Part shown: positions 2,672 through 49,526 of the stretch, piece by piece
Position numbering within the stretch: position 1 is the stretch's first letter
Layout: each line of letters opens with the position of its first letter
The notes under the pieces: generated by a model
Seen by the model: the letters and a program-made list of their open reading frames with translations, nothing else
Told to the model about the DNA's origin: nothing
Databases searched by the model: none
Assembly (NCBI GenBank): GCA_021156325.1
Contig: JAJNDI010000018.1
Coordinates: 1-56,588 of the forward strand
Reading direction: 5' to 3'
DNA: 56,588 nt
DNA from: Gammaproteobacteria bacterium
Lineage (GTDB): Bacteria > Pseudomonadota > Gammaproteobacteria > JAJFKG01
Program-made: the position numbers and the translations under genes

Positions 2672-5600
2672 CTACGTATTGATGAAGCCCCATTCATTAT
2701 CCTCTACATCATCATCTGGTTTCCAATGTGGGGAATTGTTTGCAGCAGGAGTGAACTGTCCAAACAAAGTAGCCAAACTGTTAAGACAACCAGCGGATTG
2801 CTCATCGCCGTTTTTTTCGGTGGTTTCGTTTGCTTGGCTAGCTTCCATAGGTTTAATATGCTTTTGATAAACCTCAGCGCTACCTTTGTTCATCCATTCC
2901 CCGATTTCTTCCCATATAGCTTCGTTGCTTCCTTCAGGGGTAGGAAAACACTTTTTGATGAGCCAATTATCAAATCGGCGAATAGCGAGAAAGTTAATAG
3001 GGTATGCACTTCCCAGGGAGATCAAGCTATTCATTACCATGCTTATATCACAGGGAATAGCAGAACTTAACATATGCATCGCACTTAAAGTGGAAAGCAA
3101 ACCCAATCCAGACTCCGGCAGCATACGGAATATTTCAGCCTTGCTGAGGGGAACATAACTTAATTCTTCTGATGTACTATCGGAAAAAGAAGCACGTGCT
3201 CTTACACATAAGTAAACCATGCTATGAATTATCGCATGAGAGATGTCCCAGGCCGCTGGGCCTAGCAAAAATGCCCGGCTTACGCAGGAGGCTATTGCCG
3301 AAAACCATTCTGCTTCTGCAGGAATTGCATAAGAGAAAATATGATTATAATTGAAAGCAGGGAAGAAGAACCCGTTATAACTTAAAGCAAATACAGAGCC
3401 TACTGTAAATATTCGAGCGCAAGCAATAGCGAGGTCAATAACCGCATTATCTTGAACATCGTGATAAAGCCCTTTTACCAGGTTTTTTTTAAGATTGTCG
3501 GAGAGTTTTGCCCCTTTTTCCTCTAGTCTCTCGATTAATCCGTTTAATTTTTCCTTCTTGAATTCATGGATCCAGGCAGCTTTGTAATTGCCGAAAAAGG
3601 CGTCCAGAAAGTTGTTGAGAGTGCCGGCGGTGTAAATGGAGATCAGGAGCCCTGTAGAAAATACTTGCGATATGGTAAAAGCTGCACCAACCGCGCCCAG
3701 ACTAATACCGGTGACATAATCAATCCCCTTTTTAAGAGCCTGAGTTGAATCACGAGCCATTAGAGCGAGAACGTAAAAAGCACCTCCTGTCATCGAGGCA
3801 ATAGTGCCCGTTGTAATATAAGCTATGGCAACTTTACCCTTGGATAACTTCTGAGGATAGTTGCATAAAGTATCTTTAAAGTCAGTCATTCCGGTCGGAA
3901 TATCAAATACTGAAAAAGGGCCTTGAGGTAAGTTAGCCCATACGCTGCCGGTAATAGCAAACCCGATAAAAACCCAGTTGTTAAGGAATGTTCTGGCAGA
4001 TTCCGTTGTAAAGACAGCAAACATGGGAACGCTGGTAATACCTAAAAAGCCTGCTGCACCGTACTGAAAACCACTCCAAAAATGGTCTGCAACACAATGA
4101 CGTGAAAAGGAAGAAGCGCCGGCATTTTTTTTGGCAGGATCATCATTAACATTAACGAGTAACGGCTCTCGTTCACGATCACTAAGCTCGTCGGCGGCCA
4201 CTTCGACTAATGCTCCTTCCCCTTCTTCTACTTGCTCTGTGTCTGCTGCCTTTTTAGGTTTACTTTTATAATGAAGTATGGCATGGCCTAAAACCAGCAC
4301 ACCTGATACCACAAAGCAGGGCCAGATACAGTATGAATCCGGACCAAAACCGCTACTGTCGCTGTCATCAGGATAAAAGGGCGATGGGCTGGGTGATGGT
4401 TCAGTGTCGTTAGTATCTTCAGTAGTTGGCGTTGGTGATGGCGTTGACGAGGGTATAGGATTTAAAGACGGTGTTGGGGCCGGCACCGGTGATGGCGTTG
4501 ACGAGGGTATAGGATTTAAAGACGGTGTTGGGTAAAGACGGTGTTGGCGCTGGTGAGGGTGACGGTATGGGGGTTATGGGATTAATGGGTGTGAAAGTAA
4601 CATTTTCATTAAAGCCGAGATCGAGCGTAATAGTAGAAGAAACTATATTATATCCCTCGTTATTACACACTTCACGATGTGCTTCATAATCCTCTTCGCG
4701 TTTTTGATTAAGGGGCCCTTGTGCACAACCACCGTCATTGAACTTACCGGTTTCTGTTCTTACTCCAAAGTTAGCGGTGGTTTTTTCAGCGGCTTGACAC
4801 CAATCAAGCCCTTCAGCACTTGCTCGAAAATATTTGGCTGAAGTTGCCATTGAAACCTTTGCATTCACCGCTTCTCCATGAAAAGTGATAGTATCATTTT
4901 CAGTATCAGTCGTGGCATAAAAGAAAAGATTGTCGCTTTCAAAGTTTTCGATAGTGGAATCTTGCAGACTTATCACAACGTTAGCAGGATTGGAGTTAGT
5001 AGAATGGATCTTTAAATTTTTAATATTCACATTCTTGAGAATAATGATATCTCCATCGGTATTAAGTTCAACATTCTCGCCTTCAAGACCGCAGAGATTG
5101 ATACCTTTTGACGGAGATAAGGGCACCGAAGTTAAATCCGCATAAAGCCCCTCGGATGCATCACTATTAACTACTTGCCAGGGCGTAAAGTAAGTACAAT
5201 TAAGAACACGGGTAGCAGAAACGTTTGAGCCAGTGATGACGGTATTGACTTCCGAACTTAAGAATTGTGCATTAGACAGATCACTGCCTGCGGGGAAAAC
5301 GAAGCCTGAGAAACCAGTGCTGGTATCTGGGGTTGTACTAAATATTACTCCTGATATAACTGTTCCCGGCATAATAATGGGTCGGCCATTTATTTGCTTA
5401 TTATAAAGCGGATAACACGTAGCGGAGGCCCCTTGCTCAATGATCGTACCCTCATCACCAATAACAGTGACGGTACTATTAACACCATTTAAATCTTCAC
5501 CAAACTTGATCGGATTTGCAGGATCTTCCAATAGATCATTTTGTTGCTTGAGTGACAAGCTGCCTGTTGTGTAAGTTAAGACATTTCCATATGCTTCTTG

Positions 5601-5987
5601 GAAACCGCCGTTCATTGCCATTTGGCAAGGAGCTGATGATTGTGTCCCATATTCAATATGAGTGTAATCCTGTCTGCTCAAAGAGTTCCTCATTCTGCTG
5701 CGAAGGTTGCGTCCAGCTATATTTTCCCTACTTTCTTCTGCTGATCGTGATAGAACGCCCAGCATGGGCGCCAGCAAAGTGATAAAAAAGGTTAAACCGA
5801 AAACTACCACTATAAAAGTCAGCATAATGACAAGAGCTTGAGAAGATGAAAATGGATATGACGATTCTGCAGGAGCAGGTGAAGAAGGTTCTTGCCCAAA
5901 CAGCTGTGCTATTTCTTGATACTCAGGATCCAAGGGGAGCTCGATGCGGGGATTGCGTCGTGATCGGATGGCGTTAGACTTAGGCAT
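2672..5987 (-). pseudogene. Large multi-pass membrane protein, cassette A; split by a frameshift in its Pro/Thr repeat (ORFs 4419..5987 + 2672..4486)
   Basis: Both halves align in order with the 1411-aa paralog at 7881..12116 ([78 protein letters not shown]). Removing 16 nt at about 4532-4547 restores one ~1099-aa frame. Confidence 0.8.
4434..4547 (-). repeat. 54-bp in-gene tandem repeat (APTPSLNPIPSSTPSPVP), about 2 units plus a 16-nt remnant
   Basis: Identical 44-mers start at 4434 and 4488 (period 54). The 15-mer taaagacggtgttgg recurs at 4517 and 4533. Confidence 0.9.
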
Positions 5988-6051: not shown

Positions 6052-7482
6052 TTAAGACATAATCCTCGTATCAACAAATTGGCATTGCTCGGGATGGTTT
6101 GGTCTATTGCATCGATATAGCGTCCCAGAAGTGTTAATCCAGTTACTGCTTTTACCGGTTTTTGCACCACTATAATGGTTGGTCATATTTACAGTATGTG
6201 TTCCAAGGTCATTTATTTCGTATGTACATATTCCCGAACTTGGATTGCTTGTATCAAAGGTAGCGTAAACAAAGCTTGCATCACCTATGTATGGACTGGG
6301 TGCATTCGTTTGATACCACCCATCTGATGCACTATAGTTACCGGTGCCATCACCGGTGACGGTAGCAGGGCAGCTCATAAAACCGGGAACCACTGAGCCA
6401 TCAGCTACGGCTAAAACGGTAGACATTCTGACGGCAGGGGTTTTTGTCCACTCAATCAGGCTTTGTTGAGAACCGGTTTCACTTAAATCCGCATAAGTGG
6501 CTTGATGAGCGCCGCCGACTGTATCATCAAAAGCGACATTAAAGCGAAGTCCTGTGGTGTAATAATGCTGATGGGAAGTTAAATCGTTGGTAGCCTCTGT
6601 CAGGGCTTCAATTTCGGTAGGCATGCCTTTGATAGAAGGCGTTAACCAGCTTAATCCGGCGCTGTAGCCATGCTCGGTTTGGCGAAGCTCCGAACTTAAA
6701 GTTAACTTCAAGGTGGGGAATAAGCGTTGTTCCATTTTTGCATGACCCCCGAAGCCTTGTACATCTTGATCAGCATATTGCGTATCAAAACGAACAGTGT
6801 CGTAATCGAGACCGCCGCTTAAGCGGCTGTAAGGCCACAAGTGCGTTGCGAGATTAAGATGCGCGTTGCCGCTGTTAGCGCCAGCAATGCGGCGTTGTTC
6901 GAGATAATCCAGATTGTTGACGGAATCGTGAAGGGTTTCACTGGCGATATCTTTACTCGGAGAATGGGTATAATAACCGCCAAAGCCTAAGGATTGCAGA
7001 GTTTTGTTATTCAGCATATAAGCATAATCTGCACCCAGCGCATTTTGGCCGACCCACTGAGACACGGTATCGCTTGTAAAATCATTTCCTACAAAGTCAA
7101 AATCGAGTTTTTCATCCAGACGTTCGCCTGTCACTTTAATACGTTGATGATTGCTAACATTAACCCCATAGGTTGCATTCAAGCGAAAAATACGAGGCCC
7201 GCCGTTTAATTCCAGCGCAGCAGCATGTTGACTATCAAAAAGGTAGCTCGATACTTTAGCTTCGCCTACAAAACCTAAAACCGAATCGTGATATCCGCTT
7301 AAGCTAAACCCTTCCTGAGAGAAAATACTGTCACTATTGAGGGTGTTTAGGCTATTTTCATGTAGAAGGGTGAGAGGCGTTTTATCGGAATTTGTCTCGT
7401 TTGCAGCGGCATAAGAGAAGAAACTGATATTCATCAGAACGCAAAACATTATGCATTTGCCAATATTGCTTATCCTTGCCAT
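6052..7482 (-). CDS. Sec-exported outer-membrane beta-barrel-like protein with a C-terminal 4-Cys domain (inverse-autotransporter-like; tip resembles DUF3757), cassette A
   Basis: Signal peptide MARISNIGK...FFSYAA. Amphipathic beta-strand pattern (FRLNATYGVNV, LGFGGYY, YSAGLSW, TGLRFNVAF). Tip CP...C.Y...C...CQF. Close paralog of 12184..13512. Family calls are from memory of motifs. Confidence 0.65.
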   Translation of the reverse strand: MARISNIGKCIMFCVLMNISFFSYAAANETNSDKTPLTLLHENSLNTLNSDSIFSQEGFSLSGYHDSVLGFVGEAKVSSYLFDSQHAAALELNGGPRIFRLNATYGVNVSNHQRIKVTGERLDEKLDFDFVGNDFTSDTVSQWVGQNALGADYAYMLNNKTLQSLGFGGYYTHSPSKDIASETLHDSVNNLDYLEQRRIAGANSGNAHLNLATHLWPYSRLSGGLDYDTVRFDTQYADQDVQGFGGHAKMEQRLFPTLKLTLSSELRQTEHGYSAGLSWLTPSIKGMPTEIEALTEATNDLTSHQHYYTTGLRFNVAFDDTVGGAHQATYADLSETGSQQSLIEWTKTPAVRMSTVLAVADGSVVPGFMSCPATVTGDGTGNYSASDGWYQTNAPSPYIGDASFVYATFDTSNPSSGICTYEINDLGTHTVNMTNHYSGAKTGKSSNWINTSGTLYRCNRPNHPEQCQFVDTRIMS

Positions 7483-7554
7483 CGCATTTATTTCCTGCAT
7501 CTTTATTTAAGGTATCAATATCCATCAAAACATCCGGCCTTTTGATAGAAGACC

Positions 7555-7880: not shown

Positions 7881-10800
7881 TTAATTATTAATTACTAGGC
7901 CATCTTCTACTTTTTCTGCTCTTTCTGCTGTGCTGATATACTCTTCAAAACCGGATTGGAAGAGGTTACTAAAAAAGCAGTTTCTATTATTGACCAATCC
8001 TGATACCTCCGTTTGCATTCTTGGATAAGGAGTATCTTCAATATTATTTGGATCAGCGCTTTTGGCAATTACCACACTAATAATAATTCTTTGGATATAT
8101 TCTGGTGTGAGAAATAAATCAGGATGAATTTTTTGTATATTTTTTTGTATTTGACATAAAAGTCCATACAGTTGTCCTGAAAGTGAATCTTGAATAATTT
8201 CTTCAGTGAAAAATTGTTGAATGTATTGTGGGTCTTCTAAAGAGTTCAGGGTTTTTGTGGTATAAACTTCCATGAATGCGATATCTTGCAAGCTTTCATG
8301 ATAAGCCATGCTGTTTTGAATATCAGCTTTCAGTCCTGAAGGATTTTCTCGATTTATAAAGTTACCCAGTTTTGTGATTAATAAGTCGTACATTGAAAAA
8401 AGATTCAGGGGTATTGCGCCCATAGAACCTAATAGGAGCCCAATCCATCTTGCTTTTTCCGGGGAGAGTGATATACCGGCCAAATCACTCAGGCGGGATA
8501 AGAAGTAATTCATATTCATACCGGCTCCGCTAAAACCGCCGCAAGGAAATACCGTACCGATTATCCAGAGAGCTGCCATACCGTTTAGGACATTACTTTT
8601 ATTTTTCCTAAGCCAGGATAGAAAACCTTCTGGTGAATCCGGTGAAGATCTAAGCTCTCTGCAGAATTGAATGAAATTGGAAAAAATCTGGGGAGATCTT
8701 TTGATGAGAGCGACTAATTGCTTGGTCCCATTATAGGCCGTGGGGCCAAAAATCTGAAAGAAGCGAATGTACAAACCCGTTGCGATCGCGATTTCAATTC
8801 GTGACCAATCCAGATGAGAAGAGCTTCCTCCTGTACTGGAGGGATCACAGATAGCATCGTGAGGCGGAATAATAATCTCACTGGGAGGAATAAGCGCAGA
8901 TAAAAAATAGGATATGCTGGTTGTAGCAGCGGGTATGCCTATAAGAGTGCCTATGATAACGTGCGCAGCATCCTCACTGAAGGAAGACCATTGCGTATTT
9001 TCGCTTGTTGGAACCGAGCTCTCATCTAAGGCTTGTAGCGCAGCAGTTTCAGAAGTTAACAAAACTTTTTTCAGCATTTCGCCTATCGCAGCCTTATGGG
9101 TTCCAAATACAAAGCGGTTTAGATTTCTGCACAAATTACCGGTGTATAAGGCAACATTTGAAGCAATAATAGAATCTGCAGCAGCATTAATAGGAAAATA
9201 TTTACCTAGGGGCGCAGAGAAGTTACAAAGAAAATGAGCAGAACTGAGCGCTGATCCCGTTGACATTTCTGCTGAACCCCAGACAGCCAACGTGAGGGGA
9301 GCTATATTGCTCACCCCCGCTATCCAATACAAAAAAGTTTCCAGAGCTGTTTCAGTATCAGGACGGTTATACAAGCTTAATACAATACTTTCTATAGAAG
9401 GTAAAATGATGCTCATGAAATAAGCAGTAACAATGATGTTTTGTCCAAAGCCTGCCCATAAAGCATCAGTGGTCAACTCGGGAAAATAGTCTTCTGCAAA
9501 TTCTCCGGAAAATCTTATAAATACGCTGGTACTAAGAAGATCAAGGAAAAGGACGCCGCCTACGGAGACTAGACTCAGATGAAATGGGGAAAATAAACTT
9601 TTAGCGAGACGCAGCACTTTATCACGTGTTTCTTTGCAATCAGTGTCTTGATAATTTTTTCCCGATTCTCTGGAAAAGCTGGCTAAGAGAAGCTGGAGTT
9701 TTTGTGGATTAAGATTTACAAGAGATATTACCTCTGCTTGATCTAGCAAAGCGTTTAGAGGAATGAAAGGAAAGGTGTTTGCTCCTTCTGCTTGATCTCT
9801 ACCCCTATCTTCTTCAACCTCAACTTCCTCGATGTCTTCATGTCCGTCTGACGCTACAGGAAGAAGGGGCGCTCCTTCATCTAAGGCTTCGATGCGGGAG
9901 CGTGAAGATTTTTCTTGGGAGCTTTCCACTAACTGTCGTGTTTTTTCTTGAAATTCTTTCTCAATAGCAGGTTGTTTATATCGTGTGAGAAAAAAAGCAG
10001 CTGTGTTAGTTCCAAAGTAAAGAAGCGTGCTCCAGAACAACCACCCCATAGAATAAGTTGATTGCTGATCAGTGGGAGTTGGTGTCGGAGTGGGTTTTGC
10101 AGCAGGTGTTGGCCCTGGCGTTGGTGTCGGTAATGGACTTGGTTTTGCAGCAGGTGTTGGTCCTGGCGTTGGTGTCGGTAATGGACTTGGTTTTGCAGCA
10201 GGTGTTGGTCCTGGCGTTGGTGTCGGTAATGGACTTGGTTTTGCAGCAGGTGTTGGCCCTGGCGTTGGTGTCGGTAATGGACTTGGTTTTGCAGTAGGTG
10301 TTGTTGCTGGCGTTGGCGTCGGTAACGGAGTTGGTTTCGACGTTGGTGTTGATGTTGGTTTTGGAGTCGGCGCAGGCGGTATTATCGGTGTGGGACTGGG
10401 GCTTGGTTTTTGTGTCCACGAATTAAAATAAGACGTACCATCATTGTAACCCAGATACAGAGTTATCCATTTAAGAGGATCTCCTAACCAATAACCCAAG
10501 CAGCTTGCTAAATAGCTATTATTACGCTCTTCTGTAGTATCAACCTGGCAGCCATTGCTGTTTTCATTAAACTCTTGGGCAATTTCTTGCTCATAGGTGC
10601 ACGTATCAAGATTTCCTTTTATAGTCTGAACGCCCACTATCGGTGTTGCGCTGACTAAACTGACATTAGAATATCCCCCTAATTCTCCCAAAACTTGCGC
10701 AATGCCATCTACCACTTGAATAGCATTGGTCGTAAGCTTCTCGATACTTGCCCCCACCATACGGAATACAGTGTTTTTAGCCGTTGACATCAACGATAGA

Positions 10801-12116
10801 TCTTCAAATGCGGTGTTTTCCAAATCGATGAACAAAGGTGCATCTACAGAAGAAGTGCCTAGCTCAATTTGAACATGTTTACCGTGGCTGCCGCAAAAGT
10901 TGACGCCTTTTCCTGCAAGAGAAGTTAAACTAATCAGTGCATTTGATAAGTCTGCTTTAAATTGAGGAGGGACAAGATAACTGCAGTTGGTTAATAAACC
11001 TTTCACAAAACTACCTGTCATTCCAAAGTTTGTTCGTGAGTTCAATATCCAGGAACTATCAAAAATACCCCTTAAGGGCACTCCCTGTCGATTGTCTGAG
11101 TCATCGACTTGAAAATTAAGCCCCATAAAATGGATGCCTGCAGCATTTAGCTTTCGCCCTTTTAATAAACTTTCTTTTAAATCAAAACAGGTTACAGGAG
11201 TCCCAGCTTTAACAAAGGGTTCCCCATTGAGAGTTGCGGAATAGGTATATCCATTGTCCTTAAGAAACTTTGCAAAAAGCAACTCACCTTCTGTACCGAT
11301 ATACTGAGCTGGTGTATTTAAGAAAAAGTTATCCTGTATTTGTTGAGTTAATGTGCTAGAAGTGTTGACATAAATATTCTGTTTGGGAACTTTAAGAAAA
11401 ATAGAAAGTGATGTTGTTATTTCATTAAGGCAAGCAGGTTGAGCGTCTGCAGCGCTTACCCCTGTGTTTGCTGGTATGACCGTTGCTACCGCCAATTCAA
11501 CATTTCCTTTTACAGTTTGCGGGATATCGCTTAAGGTTTTGTTGGGCTGAGAATCGAGTGTCCTGTTGACTTCAGAAGTATTAAAAGGCAACGCTTGTGA
11601 AACCAAGATCGCGGGAGAAGGGTTATTCGTATTATTGGTATGATGATAAGTTTCATTGACGGTTGATATGACAGAATGGTTAGCAGGGGTTGCTCGAGCG
11701 GCATTGCTGTCTGCGCTATTATTGCCGCCACTCGTTAAATTACGGGGCTTGCGGTTGATTCGATTAAGATTAGGAGTTGAACGGGTAGTCTCATTGACTT
11801 TAATGGCTGCATCAGCAACTTGCATCAAAGAAAACATAGTTCCCCAAAAGACAACGCTTTTCGCTGCCTGTAGTGCAGCAGCATTATAAGTCTCAACAGC
11901 TTTGGCTTTTTTCCCGCCAGCGATGCGCTGTTTGGCATTGGCCGGATGAAGAGAGTGAGGAGGGTTTGAATGCTCCAATTTTTGTTCTTTAGCGTGCGCT
12001 TTTTTGATAAGATTTTCTTGAGAACGACGTATTTCACGGGCTGATTTTGGTTGTGCTGCTCTTTTCGCATGTTTAATCTGATTTGCAATGTCTCTTTTAT
12101 TGCTATTACCGCTCAT
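7881..12116 (-). CDS. 1411-aa multi-pass membrane protein with Cys-containing ectodomain and Pro/Thr stalk; candidate host-targeted effector, cassette B
   Basis: Basic N-terminal tail, hydrophobic segment ([16 protein letters not shown]), Asn/Thr-rich region, beta-rich Cys domain, PT repeats, TM ([13 protein letters not shown]), acidic loop with EGAPLL, several further TM segments, Glu-rich C-terminus. Confidence 0.85.
10093..10332 (-). repeat. 48-bp in-gene tandem repeat ([16 protein letters not shown]) x4 plus a degenerate unit
   Basis: Units start at 10093, 10141, 10189, 10237 and (degenerate) 10285. Confidence 0.95.
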
Positions 12117-12183: not shown

Positions 12184-13512
12184 CTAGGGCGTAACGCGCT
12201 TATCTTGAAAATGGCATTGGTTAGCAGTAACACCATTTTCACAAGTGTAATCAACTCCCTGGGGGATCCAGTTATTACCTACTTGTTGTCCTGCATTATC
12301 ATTGTAAAGAGTCAGTTGTGTGATAGCTCCGTCTATATCGTAAAAACAATGAGCTGTCTTTGAGCTGGTGGTATATTGGCTTGAATTAAATTCAATATTA
12401 TCGCTTCCATAAAACGTATTTGCGCTGCCGTGCCATCCATCAGGAGCCGTAAAATAATTTAAACCACCAGTCGTTGATTCCAAGGTAATGGTGTTATCTG
12501 CAGGACAACTCATAAATGTGGGGATAGTTGAACCATCCGCTACAGCCAACACAGTGGACATCCTGACTGCAGGCGTGCGCGTCCAATCAATCAAGCTTTG
12601 TTGAGAACCGGTTTCACTTAAATCAGCATAAGTGGCTTGATGAGTGCCGCCAACGTTATCATCTAAAGCGACATTAAAGCGAAGACCGGTTGTGTAATAA
12701 CGCTGAGTCGAAGTTAACTCTTTGGTGAAATCGGTGACTGCTTCCAGCTCGGTTTGCATCCCTTTGATAGAAGGCGTTAACCAACTTAAGCCTGCGCTGT
12801 AACCGTGTTCGGTTTGGCGAAGATCAGAGCTTAAGGTTAATTTAAGGGTCGGAAATAAGCGTTGCTCGACAGTGGCGTGACCGCCGAAGCCTTGTACATC
12901 TTGATCAGTGTATTGCGTATCAAAACGAACGGTGTCGTAATCAACACCGCCGCTCAAGCGGCTGTAAGGCCACAGGTGGGTGGCTATATTAAGATGCGCG
13001 TTGCCGCTGTTCGCGCCGGCAATACGTTGTTGGCTCAAATAATCTAAATTGTTCACCGAATCGTGAATGGTTTCATCAGCAATATCTTTGCTAGGAGAAT
13101 GCGTGTAATAACCGCCAAACCCTAAAGACTGCAGCATTTTGTTATCGAGCATATATGCATAATCAGCGCCCAAGGCATTCTGGCCGACCCACTGAGAAAT
13201 CGTATCAGTGGTGAAGTCAAAATCAAGCTTCTCATCCAGGCGCTCACCGGTGACTTTAATACGTTGATTGTTGGTGATATTAACCCCATAGGTCGCATTC
13301 AAGCGAAAAATGCGAGGACCCCCGTTTAATTCAACCGCAGCCGCATGCTGGTTGAGATTGTTATCACTGCTGTTGCTGTCAGCAGCCTCATTTAAGCCTG
13401 AAATTATGGGTGTTGGGGAGGTATTTGTTTCTGTTGTTGCATAAATAGATGATGTAATGCCTGCAATCGTGCAGATCAATACAAATTTACCAATACGATG
13501 TAACGTTCTCAT
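12184..13512 (-). CDS. Sec-exported outer-membrane beta-barrel-like protein with a C-terminal 4-Cys domain, cassette B
   Basis: Start moved to ATG 13512 (AAGGAG SD; signal peptide MRTLHRIGK...SSIYA aligns with the paralog). Core nearly identical to 6052..7482 (ELNGGPRIFRLNATYG...TPAVRMSTVLAVADGS); tip divergent. Confidence 0.7.
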   Translation of the reverse strand: MRTLHRIGKFVLICTIAGITSSIYATTETNTSPTPIISGLNEAADSNSSDNNLNQHAAAVELNGGPRIFRLNATYGVNITNNQRIKVTGERLDEKLDFDFTTDTISQWVGQNALGADYAYMLDNKMLQSLGFGGYYTHSPSKDIADETIHDSVNNLDYLSQQRIAGANSGNAHLNIATHLWPYSRLSGGVDYDTVRFDTQYTDQDVQGFGGHATVEQRLFPTLKLTLSSDLRQTEHGYSAGLSWLTPSIKGMQTELEAVTDFTKELTSTQRYYTTGLRFNVALDDNVGGTHQATYADLSETGSQQSLIDWTRTPAVRMSTVLAVADGSTIPTFMSCPADNTITLESTTGGLNYFTAPDGWHGSANTFYGSDNIEFNSSQYTTSSKTAHCFYDIDGAITQLTLYNDNAGQQVGNNWIPQGVDYTCENGVTANQCHFQDKRVTP

Positions 13513-13584
13513 AACATTTTCTCCTTGAGAAGTCGATAACATAGCAATACAGCAAGATTCAGCACGCTCCAAGGTTATTTCCTG

Positions 13585-13753
13585 GAAGCTCGTTTCCTCT
13601 GACAATGTATCCTTTTGAAGAAGATGACGGCGTGATTGGAAATAACGCCTGTGATAGGGGGTTAATTGTCCAACCGGCTGCCTTGTAGTATTTATAGGGG
13701 AGGCCAATTTCCTTAGCCGTGGCAACCTATTGCTTCGGGAATAAATAGTATCA
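13585..13753 (-). promoter_or_regulatory. Extended -10 promoter (TGaTACTAT, 13745-13753) plus conserved GGA-rich 5' leader, cassette B
   Basis: Homologous to 7555-7726; the promoter hexamer sits at the equivalent position in both copies. Confidence 0.65.
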
Positions 13754-14143
13754 AAATTTACCCATAAATTCAATTGATGTTGAATCGAGGAGTAAATCGA
13801 TTCTTCCGAGCAAACAGTTTAATTAATCTATCTTATTGAAATTCATAGCATAAAACGTATAAAGTAGAGGGTGTATCTCTGGATTGTCTGTTTGCGCCTT
13901 CACAACAACGGGTAAGTCATAAGAAAGATATAACCGTAAAAGACTTTGTCTGGATAGGCATAAGGAGCTGCCCTGTATACGGTTTGTTATCGGCAAGATG
14001 AATTTTTCAAGGATAAGATGCGTTATAGCGGAAGGCTTCTTTAAACAGCATCTCTTATACTACAAATCAACAGGATAATGACTTACAGGCTGTACTGACT
14101 TTTTCCGGTATTGCCGTTTTATAACCCCTGTATAATGAACCTT

Positions 14144-16304: not shown

Positions 16305-16426
16305 AAAATCCCCCCGATGTGCGTTTCACGCACATCGACCCCCTTTTTCAAAAGGAGTAAAATCTGGTTCTTCGCCCCCTTTGAAAAAGGGGGCAGCCAT
16401 GTGTGAAACACATGGCGGGGGATTTT
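16305..16426. repeat. Inverted doublet of family-B palindromic repeat
   Basis: aaaatcccccc-hairpin-ccccctttttcaaaagg ... ccccctttgaaaaaggggg-hairpin-gggggatttt. Confidence 0.85.
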
Positions 16427-16456
16427 ATGCAACAGTACCTTAGTCTGGAGAAAAAA

Positions 16457-17218
16457 GTGTTAACGATTGCTACCTGGAATGTCAATTCAGTGCGCGTGCG
16501 TTTGCCGCAAGTGTTAGATTTTTTGGAAAAACATCAGCCCGATTGTTTAGCGCTGCAGGAAACTAAAGTAGTCGATGCTGATTTTCCCAAAGAGATGATC
16601 ACAAAAGCGGGGTATCACGTCATTTATACAGGGCAAAAAACCTATAACGGTGTAGCTATTTTAAGTAAGGCGCCGTTAGAGGACTGCCTAACGGAGTTGC
16701 CGAATGTTGATCCTCTTGAGCGGCGCTTTATCGCAGCGACCCTTGGAACACTTCGTTTTATCAATGTCTATGTTCCCAATGGGGCAAGTGTCGATTCTCC
16801 TAAATATAGTTATAAACTCGATTGGTTTGCCAAATTGCGAGACTACCTGCAACTACAAATACAAGAATATAAGCAAATAGTGATGATGGGAGATTTTAAT
16901 GTTGCCCCTACCGATGCTGATATTGCTGAGCCTGAACGCTGGCGAGGGCAGGTGTTGGCAAGTCAGCCTGAGCGAGATGCTTTTCAAGCTTTAGCACAAA
17001 CGGGCGTGGTAGACTTGTTGGAACAGCGAAGGGACTACACGTGGTGGGATTATCGGGCAGGGGCTTTCCCTAAAAACAAGGGGTTAAGAATAGATCATAT
17101 TCTGGCGACACCCTCCCTGGCAGGACGGCTGGTAGAAGGCGGGGTCGATAAAGAGAGGCGAGGCCATACCTGCCCTTCCGATCATGCACCTCTTTGGGCG
17201 CGGCTTAATTTGAACTAA
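16457..17218 (+). CDS. xthA: Exodeoxyribonuclease III
   Basis: IATWNVNSVRVR, LQETK, VYVPNG, GDFNVAP, LRIDHIL, SDHAP. GTG start with GGAG SD (alternative ATG at 16427). Confidence 0.92.
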   Translation: MLTIATWNVNSVRVRLPQVLDFLEKHQPDCLALQETKVVDADFPKEMITKAGYHVIYTGQKTYNGVAILSKAPLEDCLTELPNVDPLERRFIAATLGTLRFINVYVPNGASVDSPKYSYKLDWFAKLRDYLQLQIQEYKQIVMMGDFNVAPTDADIAEPERWRGQVLASQPERDAFQALAQTGVVDLLEQRRDYTWWDYRAGAFPKNKGLRIDHILATPSLAGRLVEGGVDKERRGHTCPSDHAPLWARLNLN

Positions 17219-37429: not shown

Positions 37430-38212
37430 TTGCGTATTATCACCTGCAATGTCAATGGCATTCGTGCTGCAGCGCGCAAAGGTTTCTTCACGTGGCTTTC
37501 ACAGCAACATGCCGATGTGGTTTGCCTTCAGGAAATAAGAGCGAGTACCACTCATTTAAGTGAGCCGCTATTTCACCCCGAAGGATTCTTATGTTATTAC
37601 ATTGAAGCTCAAAAAAGCGGGTATTCCGGTGTTGGTATTTATACCCGCCATCAACCCAATCGTATTATTCAATCGCTTGATTGGCCGGTGATGGATACAG
37701 AGGCGCGCTATCTTCAAGTGGATTTTAAAAATTTGAGCGTGATCTCTTTGTATCTGCCTTCAGGCTCCAGCAGTGAAGCTCGTCAACAAGTCAAATTTGA
37801 AGTGCTCGATAAGCTTGGTGAATACTTACGCGGGTTACGCCGGCGGCAGCGGGAATTTATTCTTTGCGGTGATTGGAATATTGCCCACAAAAAAATAGAT
37901 ATTAAAAATTGGCGGGGCAATCAAAAAAGTTCAGGATTTTTACCCGAAGAACGAGCCTGGATGGATAATTTATTTGATAATATCGGTTTTGTAGATGCTT
38001 TTCGGGTGGTGAATCCAGAACCTCATCAATACACTTGGTGGTCACAGCGTCAAAAGGCGCGTCTAAGCAATGCGGGCTGGCGGATAGATTATCAGATAGT
38101 AACTCCAGGTCTTCGTGACAAGATCCAAAATGCCGCGATTTATAAAGAGGAGTGTTTTTCGGATCACGCCCCGGTTATCATTGATTATGATTTAACGATA
38201 GGCGCTGATTGA
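37430..38212 (+). CDS. xth: Exodeoxyribonuclease III family AP endonuclease (at the pyrE-divergent crc/xth position)
   Basis: NVNGIRAAARKG, YLPSG, GDWNIAH, GWRIDY, FSDHAP. Confidence 0.9.
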   Translation: MRIITCNVNGIRAAARKGFFTWLSQQHADVVCLQEIRASTTHLSEPLFHPEGFLCYYIEAQKSGYSGVGIYTRHQPNRIIQSLDWPVMDTEARYLQVDFKNLSVISLYLPSGSSSEARQQVKFEVLDKLGEYLRGLRRRQREFILCGDWNIAHKKIDIKNWRGNQKSSGFLPEERAWMDNLFDNIGFVDAFRVVNPEPHQYTWWSQRQKARLSNAGWRIDYQIVTPGLRDKIQNAAIYKEECFSDHAPVIIDYDLTIGAD

Positions 38213-44048: not shown

Positions 44049-44101
44049 CCCTCTTTGAAAGAGAGGGCAGCCTTGTGCGAAGCACAAGGCTGTGGATTTT
44101 A
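44049..44101 (+). repeat. Family-B palindromic repeat overlapping the stop codon of the Fis-like gene
   Basis: ccctctttgaaagagaggg-cagccttgtgcgaagcacaaggctg-tggatttt. Confidence 0.75.
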
Positions 44102-44695
44102 ACGACGTTCAATACCGTAGATTTTGATTTTTTTACGCAAAGTTCCGCGGCTTAACCCCATCATTTTGGCAGCACGGGTTTGATTATCGCGAATATCTTC
44201 CATAACCGCTGTTAACAACGGTTCTTCAATTTCAGCCAAAACCATATTATACATTTTGGTAATAGTTTGGCCGCGCATATTAGTCAGATAACGACGGACA
44301 TTTTGCAAAACGCAAATGCGCATAGGCGCTAACGTACGTTCCAAATCATTGGCCGGCTCACCCGCTTCGGGACTGGACCGTTTATCGATAGCATAGGTTT
44401 TTAATTTTTTACGCAAAGTTCCGCGGCTTAAGGTTAACATGCGGGCAGCTTTGGTCTGATTGCCGCGGCATTCTTCAATCACGGCTAACAAGAGCGGCTG
44501 TTCCATAGCAGCCAGTACAACCTCATAAACACGGCCGTCGATTTCATCACGGAAGCGCTGCAATACAGCCCGTGAACAATCTAGCACATATTGCTTGAGA
44601 GGCTGGTCTGTATGTTGTTCCACATGCCCTGCGGGGAGTACTTTGGGTGAGTTATTCATCGTATTTGACATATTCATCAGCTCTTTCTCTCTCAT
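44099..44695 (-). CDS. fis: Fis-like nucleoid protein containing two tandem Fis units
   Basis: Two copies of Y..VLA..E.PLL.AV....R.NQT.AA.M..LSRGTLRKK.K.Y; canonical fis-purH-purD position. Confidence 0.85.
   Translation of the reverse strand: MREKELMNMSNTMNNSPKVLPAGHVEQHTDQPLKQYVLDCSRAVLQRFRDEIDGRVYEVVLAAMEQPLLLAVIEECRGNQTKAARMLTLSRGTLRKKLKTYAIDKRSSPEAGEPANDLERTLAPMRICVLQNVRRYLTNMRGQTITKMYNMVLAEIEEPLLTAVMEDIRDNQTRAAKMMGLSRGTLRKKIKIYGIERR

Positions 44696-47972: not shown

Positions 47973-49526
<1,554 letters not shown>

Follow-up and report, generated by a model that had tools for sequence, protein, structure and literature searches.

The stretch of 56,588 nucleotides at positions 1-56,588 of contig JAJNDI010000018.1 (assembly GCA_021156325.1, from a gammaproteobacterium), the whole of which is called the window here, carries on its reverse strand the coding sequences of two large proteins, A and B, that share one modular layout: a variable N-terminal domain, a repeat-encoded and unstable Pro/Thr/Ser stalk, a single transmembrane (TM) helix with a K/R-rich C-terminal flank, and an acidic, variable tail. 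In both tails, and in a third of unrelated sequence, a motif of the form ExxPL[LM] occupies a fixed position behind the helix, and this placing is not due to chance. The family to which these proteins belong is small, unannotated, multi-copy and fast-evolving, and is confined to one genus-level lineage that bears a Dot/Icm system. An earlier description of this DNA, referred to below as the original prediction, took the motif for a eukaryotic dileucine sorting signal; the reading put first here, to which we would attach a probability of roughly 0.45, is that A and B may be bacterial envelope proteins, with a stalked domain in the periplasm or at the cell surface and a cytoplasmic motif for a putative reader.

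Architecture of the two proteins and their family

Protein B is encoded intact. Its parts, together with the gene ahead of it, are as follows (KD, Kyte-Doolittle hydropathy; ORF, open reading frame):

12184-13773, reverse strand: O2, an outer-membrane-like partner gene, directly upstream of B across a 67-nucleotide gap
7881-12116, reverse strand: protein B, 1411 residues, intact (from the ORF and hydropathy)
11802-11858, reverse strand: hydrophobic segment 1 of B (residues 87-105, KD 1.32), followed by VADA and then AIK
10425-11801, reverse strand: B ectodomain (residues 106-564), an Asn/Ser/Thr-rich linker plus a 7-Cys domain, with 13 sequons and 7 Cys
10050-10424, reverse strand: B Pro/Thr stalk (residues 565-689), partly a 48-bp tandem repeat of 5.1 copies (10093-10337)
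9978-10040, reverse strand: B post-stalk hydrophobic helix (residues 693-713, KD 1.07), aromatic-rich
9861-9878, reverse strand: EGAPLL, the B motif (residues 747-752), 34 residues past the end of the TM helix
7884-9719, reverse strand: B-type C-terminal domain (C-domain; residues ~800-1411), shared with P0004, with P0003 (contig C16) and, remotely, with A

Read from its N-terminus, B comprises a basic N-tail (residues 1-85), a weak hydrophobic segment, the ectodomain, the Pro/Thr stalk, the TM helix, an acidic loop, the C-domain and an acidic C-terminus. The first hydrophobic segment could be either a signal anchor or a cleavable signal, a small-x-small site after it having been spotted by eye. 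The C-domain, of roughly 600 residues, has about six moderately hydrophobic helices by hydropathy, and its conserved motifs include SFSRxxGKxY, EMS, CDxSSTG and GFSxAGMNM; the C-domains of A, P0004 and P0003 resemble it in this respect, each of the four domains having some 5-6 further such helices. Stalk length varies, as is seen from P0002, which is encoded on a different contig and equals B minus two 16-residue stalk units, plus one substitution.

Protein A is present in the window in two pieces, which were analysed separately:

6052-7500, reverse strand: O1, an outer-membrane-like partner gene, directly upstream of A across a 64-nucleotide gap
4419-5987, reverse strand: N-terminal piece of A, a 522-residue ORF with the N-tail, a strong TM helix, a 7-Cys ectodomain and the start of the stalk
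residues 51-69 of the N-terminal piece, reverse strand: first TM helix of A, strongly hydrophobic (KD 2.88)
4517-4547, no strand assigned: a perfect 16-bp tandem duplication (1.9 copies) within the stalk-coding repeats, at the frame break of gene A
2672-4486, reverse strand: C-terminal piece of A, a 604-residue ORF with the rest of the stalk, a TM helix, an acidic loop, the C-domain and an acidic C-terminus
residues 53-71 of the C-terminal piece, reverse strand: post-stalk TM helix of A (KD 2.08)
4157-4174, reverse strand: EREPLL, the A motif (residues 105-110 of the C-terminal piece), 32 residues past the end of the TM helix

The layout is that of B, except that the first TM helix is far more strongly hydrophobic (KD 2.88 against 1.32). 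The two ORFs lie in different frames, the break coinciding with the 16-bp tandem duplication, past which the N-terminal piece runs out of frame. A Logan contig of the public sequencing run X1 (2179 nucleotides, depth 9.6), which spans 4456-4850, lacks 16 bases at 4517, so that an unbroken form of gene A does exist in public data; the split may therefore be a variant or an assembly artefact, contigs being seen to break in exactly this repeat. Contigs of runs X2-X4 cover only portions of 4150-4850, and X2-X9, which contain only small shares of the sequence, were not used as evidence of habitat; no RNA dataset is among the public runs listed for the sequence. The single giant protein A of the original prediction is thus real as regards its parts and its relationship to B, but in the window it is two ORFs and not one.

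That A and B are paralogs is borne out at both ends. Homology of the ectodomains extends over 386 residues at 24% identity (E 3e-7), and the conserved cysteines that had been pointed out are all found to correspond, the seven of A aligning with the seven of B at similar spacing. The C-domains seem unrelated by BLASTP (best E 0.05), but three colinear matches, namely SFSR at A 125 and B 814, LN..G.YKAA at A 290 and B 997, and an hhalign match of A 397-450 to a B-type profile (probability 73%, E 3e-5), make the two proteins remote paralogs over their full length.

Relatives beyond these are few. The C-terminal part of A matched only itself among 5.8 billion proteins, and that of B gave three matches among 1.84 billion cluster representatives: itself, the paralog P0003 and P0004. 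P0003, on its own contig (C16), is without ectodomain or stalk and has a loop of only ~45 residues between two TM helices, while P0004, a hypothetical protein of another metagenome-assembled genome (MAG), is the only ortholog of B (66% identity in the N-terminal part, 28% in the C-domain). With the whole of B as query only P0002 and P0004 were genuine, the other 44 matches covering at most 13% of the query and being to Pro/Thr linkers. No eukaryotic homolog of the A C-terminal part, the B C-terminal part or whole B was found in the two protein libraries, and among 41 related genomes matches came only from the source genome (G000) and a sister species (G001).

The stalk-TM-tail module recurs in both genomes: in G000 it is found in A, in B and at C4:14781-17627, C27:724-3024, C53:1395-4784 and C4:3-2723 (contig and positions), and in G001 there are four members. 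N-domains and tails vary widely from one member to the next. The C53 member (C53_1130) has 1130 residues, lacks an N-terminal hydrophobic segment and ends in CGGCVMM. The ORF at C4:3-2723 begins in mid-stalk at the very start of its contig and bears the EKTPLM tail discussed below, while an 807-residue ORF at C58:38064-40484, with what appear by eye to be integrin-alpha-like FG-GAP-type repeats, leaves its contig inside a Pro/Thr/Lys stalk; the two are probably one gene split by assembly. A further open frame, of 3354 residues (C4:2772-12833), separates the C4 tail gene from the cassette of partner and giant that comes next.

The motif, its position and its membrane side

The two motifs were confirmed from the reverse-complement translation, and hydropathy confirms that in each protein a Pro/Thr stalk and then a hydrophobic segment precede the motif. 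Both EREPLL and EGAPLL fit the strict acidic dileucine pattern [DE]xxxL[LI] and its restricted form ExxPLL. The third case, EKTPLM in the unrelated C4 tail, does not fit the strict consensus, and it must be borne in mind that the last position of the pattern was widened to [LM] after this case had been seen, and that A and B share ancestry. Measured from the end of the TM helix the motif begins at +32 in A, +34 in B and +32 in the C4 tail. Three of the 10 family tails have E..PL[LM] among their first 60 residues, as against a mean of 0.008 tails in 20000 shuffles, and a search over whole tails adds no further case (3 of 11 members). Over the genome at large the pattern is not enriched (20 occurrences against 14.8 ± 4.2 in shuffled sequence, from 1289 ORFs), and of these 20 only the three family cases sit 33-35 residues behind a hydrophobic 19-mer.

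Conservation of the motif in further homologs, the check that the original prediction itself had proposed, fails in P0004, in P0003 and in all four sister-species tails. At the spot where P0004 aligns with the motif of B it reads DDNNISLPDVASD, that is, ISLP in place of the motif, and P0003 reads NISLPE there. Nor was the motif found in C4_949, C27_767 or C53_1130, and the queries used brought up no homolog of either the A C-terminal part or the C4 tail in G001 or in a further genome, G002. At the aligned spot the family shares no more than x-L-P or x-L-V (PLLV, PLLP, ISLP and ISLP). A de novo search of the first 150 tail residues for patterns with four fixed positions found none in more than three tails, as was also the case in shuffles. 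A candidate second tail element, in the forms YGTLPP, YDVLPP and YGSALPP, is shared by the tails of C27_767, C53_1130 and C4_949 and resembles YxxPhi with added prolines; the exact form Y..LPP occurs in two tails.

As to the side of the membrane on which the motif lies, topology was judged throughout from hydropathy and charge counts. Of 11 tails, 10 have at least three K/R in the stretch of 15 residues that follows the post-stalk helix, against 0-2 before it, so by the positive-inside rule the motif would face the cytoplasm or cytosol, with the Cys-bearing domain across the membrane from it, as had been proposed. A placing of motif and ectodomain on one side, which the original prediction had named as refuting it, is thus not what the charges predict. 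The loop between the TM helices is very long, comprising residues 106-692 in B and ~480 residues in A (about 480-590 overall).

Other elements of the original prediction concern glycosylation, processing and secretion signals. Its sequon counts are right (13 in the B ectodomain, and in A five in the ectodomain with one more in the stalk), but enrichment against shuffled sequence, which it had named as a check, was not borne out: composition accounts for the counts, and in four of six ectodomains they are not above expectation, two being nominally enriched. For B the figures are 13 against 7.9 ± 2.4 (P 0.028, uncorrected), with nine of the 13 in the N/S/T-rich linker at residues 108-192, and for A 5 against 6.9 (P 0.85). 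The RxxR clusters RNLRSRMR and RINRKPR are present as quoted, but RxxR does not exceed chance in A (P 0.30) and is only nominally in excess in B (P 0.033). Acidic C-termini are likewise present in both proteins and as a family trend: nine of the 11 tails have at least five acidic residues among their last 30, as do 26% of the 1299 ORFs, so that a Glu-rich Dot/Icm signal is putative. Acidity is, however, a feature of these tails along their whole length. Ends resembling a CaaX box, as in C53_1130, are carried by six other ORFs of the source genome: CVLS (after CCC), CILQ, CFVM, CTVC, CVLM and CTFM.

Partner genes and genomic setting

Directly upstream of a stalk-TM giant there is a gene of one particular outer-membrane-like type at nine loci in three genomes: in G000 on C3 (twice), C4, C33 and C53, in G001 three times, and in a third MAG as the pair P0052/P0004, judged there by neighbouring locus tags. 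In the window the two partner ORFs, O1 and O2, encode 482 and 529 residues and are 61% identical, and the gaps of 64-67 nucleotides that separate partner from giant contain no terminator-like site. O2 begins with a hydrophobic region of the Sec type, continues with a conserved core rich in beta structure and ends in ~120 variable residues that include Cys. In the databases there are 13 members of the family, none of them named and none with a Pfam domain, and 12 of these have the N-terminal hydrophobic region; the conserved core has 16 beta-amphipathic (beta-dyad) segments against 7.7 ± 2.9 in shuffles (P 0.01). Out of 300 genomes sampled from the class, 20 match a profile of the partner module, which is N-terminal there in open frames of 791-5011 residues (among them ten loci in ten other gammaproteobacterial genomes, where it heads proteins of that size range); two of eight such ORFs scanned have Fn3 or He_PIG Ig-like repeats and the other six have none. 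The module looks like an unannotated outer-membrane anchor family. EirA was considered as a relative of the partner and dropped, its match (E 0.004) being found in only two of the 13 proteins.

The source genome (1.5 Mb, 90% complete) and both relatives that have the family encode a type IVB secretion system (T4BSS): the Dot/Icm markers DotB (TIGR02524) and IcmL (PF11393) score above curated cut-offs in G000, G001 and G002. The window itself holds gammaproteobacterial chromosomal housekeeping genes (typA, pilMNOPQ, aroKB, hemE, waaA, feoB and groEL), and the GC content of 0.41-0.44 between 2 and 14 kb is similar to that of the rest.

A few features elsewhere in the window may be recorded here. 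A Fis-like ORF (44099-44695, reverse strand), at 198 residues about twice the length of the model (98 positions) and matching it in two stretches, could be a tandem fusion of Fis or a Fis with an N-terminal extension. The GroEL ORF (47982-49526, forward strand; 514 residues) also matches its model in two stretches, the better being protein residues 108-491 against model positions 140-524, which suggests that a segment near residue 105 is missing or replaced. Two exodeoxyribonuclease III (xth) paralogs (16403-17218 and 37430-38212, both forward strand) lie within this one 56-kb window of a 1.5-Mb genome.

Which side the tails face, and what would follow

If A and B are envelope proteins, the signal recognition particle and Sec would insert them into the inner membrane with both termini inside (N-in/C-in), the 7-Cys domain would be oxidised in the periplasm, and the stalk (~60-125 residues, roughly 20-40 nm when extended) would carry the domain towards the outer membrane or across it, for the outer-membrane protein encoded alongside to receive or display. 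The tail would remain in the bacterial cytoplasm, and ExxPL[LM], which three tails have at a distance of 32-34 residues from the membrane, would be a short linear docking motif for a shared partner at the cytoplasmic face, its likeness to eukaryotic ExxPLL being coincidence or secondary use. We prefer this reading because the partner gene encodes a Sec-exported product, because A has so strongly hydrophobic a first TM helix, and because of the conserved cysteines (which need an oxidising compartment), the helices of the C-domains, the length of the loops and the replacement of the motif, non-random though it is, by ISLP in P0004 and P0003. A DsbB is found in the genome.

A number of points weigh against it. 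To our knowledge there is no bacterial reader of ExxPLL. That the partner is a membrane barrel and the C-domains are membrane domains is putative, being drawn from sequence patterns. No Pfam or NCBIfam model scored above cut-off for A, B, the partners or nine relatives (below threshold there were UPF0728, at E 0.034, and, in C27_767 at its TM region, ECSCR at E 5e-4), and profile searches of the PDB with alignments of the partner (A1) and of B 680-1411 (A2) found nothing, while the ectodomain alignment (A3) gave only EF-hand-like matches at E of 0.03 or above. Five partner copies in G001 have no stalk-TM neighbour, and three giants have no outer-membrane-like partner upstream. Like the inverse autotransporters (intimin, invasin and YeeJ), the partner has a predicted N-terminal Sec signal and, ahead of its C-terminal domain, a module with a beta-rich pattern, and in other genomes this module heads giant Fn3/Ig-repeat proteins; it differs from them in that PF11924 (IAT_beta) has no match in G000, an E. 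coli control being positive, and in that hhalign sees no similarity to E. coli YeeJ (probability 0.2%), and it is not assigned to that class here; both barrel and binding are putative. An N-terminal export signal is missing from C27_767 and from C53_1130, a fact that a Sec-export model leaves unexplained; long, acidic, low-complexity tails are unusual for bacterial cytoplasmic domains; and the CVMM end of C53_1130 is a CaaX-like box with additional Cys at -6 and -9, in a genome where seven of 1299 ORFs have CaaX-like ends against ~1.9 expected among the 29 with Cys at -4.

In an alternative that we regard as less probable, the tails face a host: the family would reach a host (vacuolar) membrane by way of Dot/Icm or some other route, with the stalked domain lumenal, ExxPL[LM] read by adaptors of the AP-1/AP-3 type and the CaaX box of one paralog prenylated. 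This keeps the core of the original prediction but drops its endoplasmic reticulum, glycosylation and furin elements. Restricted ExxPLL signals are found in the AP-1/AP-3 cargoes tyrosinase (EKQPLL/ERQPLL), OCA2 (LL1) and TYRP1, where Glu -4 matters for AP-3 and Pro -1 for AP-1 (PMC3418312). The motifs of A and B equal this consensus, with Glu -4, Pro -1 and LL, in an acidic and probably disordered tail on the predicted cytosolic side of a single TM helix following a stalked ectodomain, and the same spacing recurs in a tail unrelated by sequence. They differ from such cargo in being bacterial, in lying 32-34 residues from the membrane and in being absent from P0004, and adaptor contact is putative. 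Moreover, a match to ExxPLL is insufficient for adaptor binding, residues -2 and -3 also affecting activity: EKGPLL fits the pattern and yet is inactive (PMC3418312). The loss of the motif from P0004, the one ortholog that B has, and its absence from four sister-species tails count against this alternative; the presence of DotB and IcmL in all three genomes and the genome-wide excess of CaaX-like ends, with CVMM among them, are points in favour.

There are precedents for host-type signals in bacterial proteins. The dileucines of Coxiella CvpA bind AP2, and SteD is another case (both cited in PMC9182567), while Legionella AnkB is farnesylated by the host at a CaaX box (PMC2916131). A and B resemble CvpA and AnkB in belonging to a Dot/Icm lineage and in having host-type short linear motifs, acidic C-termini (nine of 11 tails) and a CaaX-like end in one paralog; they differ in lacking any sequence relation to them and in their huge Cys-bearing loops, Pro/Thr stalk and ~8 hydrophobic helices, and their translocation is putative. 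Among the papers listed on Legionellales sorting motifs and on Legionella inverse autotransporters there is none that describes the family.

The loops are an objection to a host-facing tail. Legionella T4BSS membrane effectors require a cytoplasmic C-terminal signal, and their periplasmic loops are mostly (~80%) shorter than 30 residues (PMC11602083, PMC12981334); an 8.6-kDa insert in a loop of SidF cut its translocation by 80% (PMC11602083). A and B would share with SidF and LegC3 a predicted N-in/C-in topology and a cytoplasmic C-terminus, but their Cys-bearing loops of ~480-590 residues fall far outside the short-loop range, in conflict with what the T4BSS requires; only P0003, with its ~45-residue loop, resembles typical membrane effectors. 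The first TM helix of A (KD 2.88) should furthermore drive insertion into the inner membrane, and the upstream partner is a Sec-exported envelope protein. On the other side of the balance, C27_767 and C53_1130 lack Sec signals.

An unlikely alternative is that the motif has no reader and is there as a relic or by neutral coincidence, A and B having inherited a PLL stretch and the third case being luck. As remote full-length paralogs A and B do not provide two independent motifs, the family core at this spot is merely x-L-P or x-L-V, the pattern shows no genome-wide enrichment, and its widening to [LM] was post hoc. Yet the 30-60 residues flanking the motif cannot be aligned between A and B, while E(-4), P(-1), LL and the distance from the TM helix are kept, and a tail of unrelated sequence has EKTPLM at +32, where the estimate for [DE]..PL[LIM] is ~0.003 tails per tail.

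Less likely still is a system like that of Tir and intimin. In tir-eae the gene of an outer-membrane protein stands beside that of a two-TM protein with both ends on the same side, and here too the partner gene adjoins that of a giant with both ends predicted on one side. By analogy this would be a receptor-ligand system in a Dot/Icm lineage: the giants would sit N-in/C-in in the host vacuole membrane, their Cys-domain, on a stalk of variable length, turned to the lumen and gripped by a surface domain of the partner. In this improbable case the tails would carry interchangeable host signals (ExxPLL for AP adaptors, CaaX for prenylation) by which the vacuole is steered, and the multi-copy, fast-diverging cassettes would be matched lock-and-key pairs.

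The full scheme of the original prediction, namely injection into the host, import into the endoplasmic reticulum, N-glycosylation, furin processing and dileucine sorting, is very improbable, for although the topology is compatible with it, the B ectodomain has 13 sequons (P 0.028) and post-translational Sec61 import has been discussed for effectors with long luminal parts (PMC12981334), sequons are not enriched in A or in three of four other ectodomains, RxxR in A is at chance, all the objections to T4BSS export of large-loop proteins apply, and searches of the two protein libraries gave no eukaryotic homolog.

On any of these readings what has been found is a family without Pfam, NCBIfam or PDB relatives. 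Were the tails to face a host, A and B would represent a new class of bacterial proteins that copy a eukaryotic type I receptor in its entire architecture, with ectodomain, mucin-like stalk, TM helix and adaptor signal, and they would challenge the view that tiny periplasmic loops are a requirement for T4BSS membrane effectors. If, as we prefer, the proteins stay in the bacterium, the cassette would be an undescribed envelope system, in which an unannotated outer-membrane module is combined with inner-membrane proteins of repeat-variable length, and it would serve as an example of how easily eukaryotic linear motifs can be over-read in bacterial sequence.

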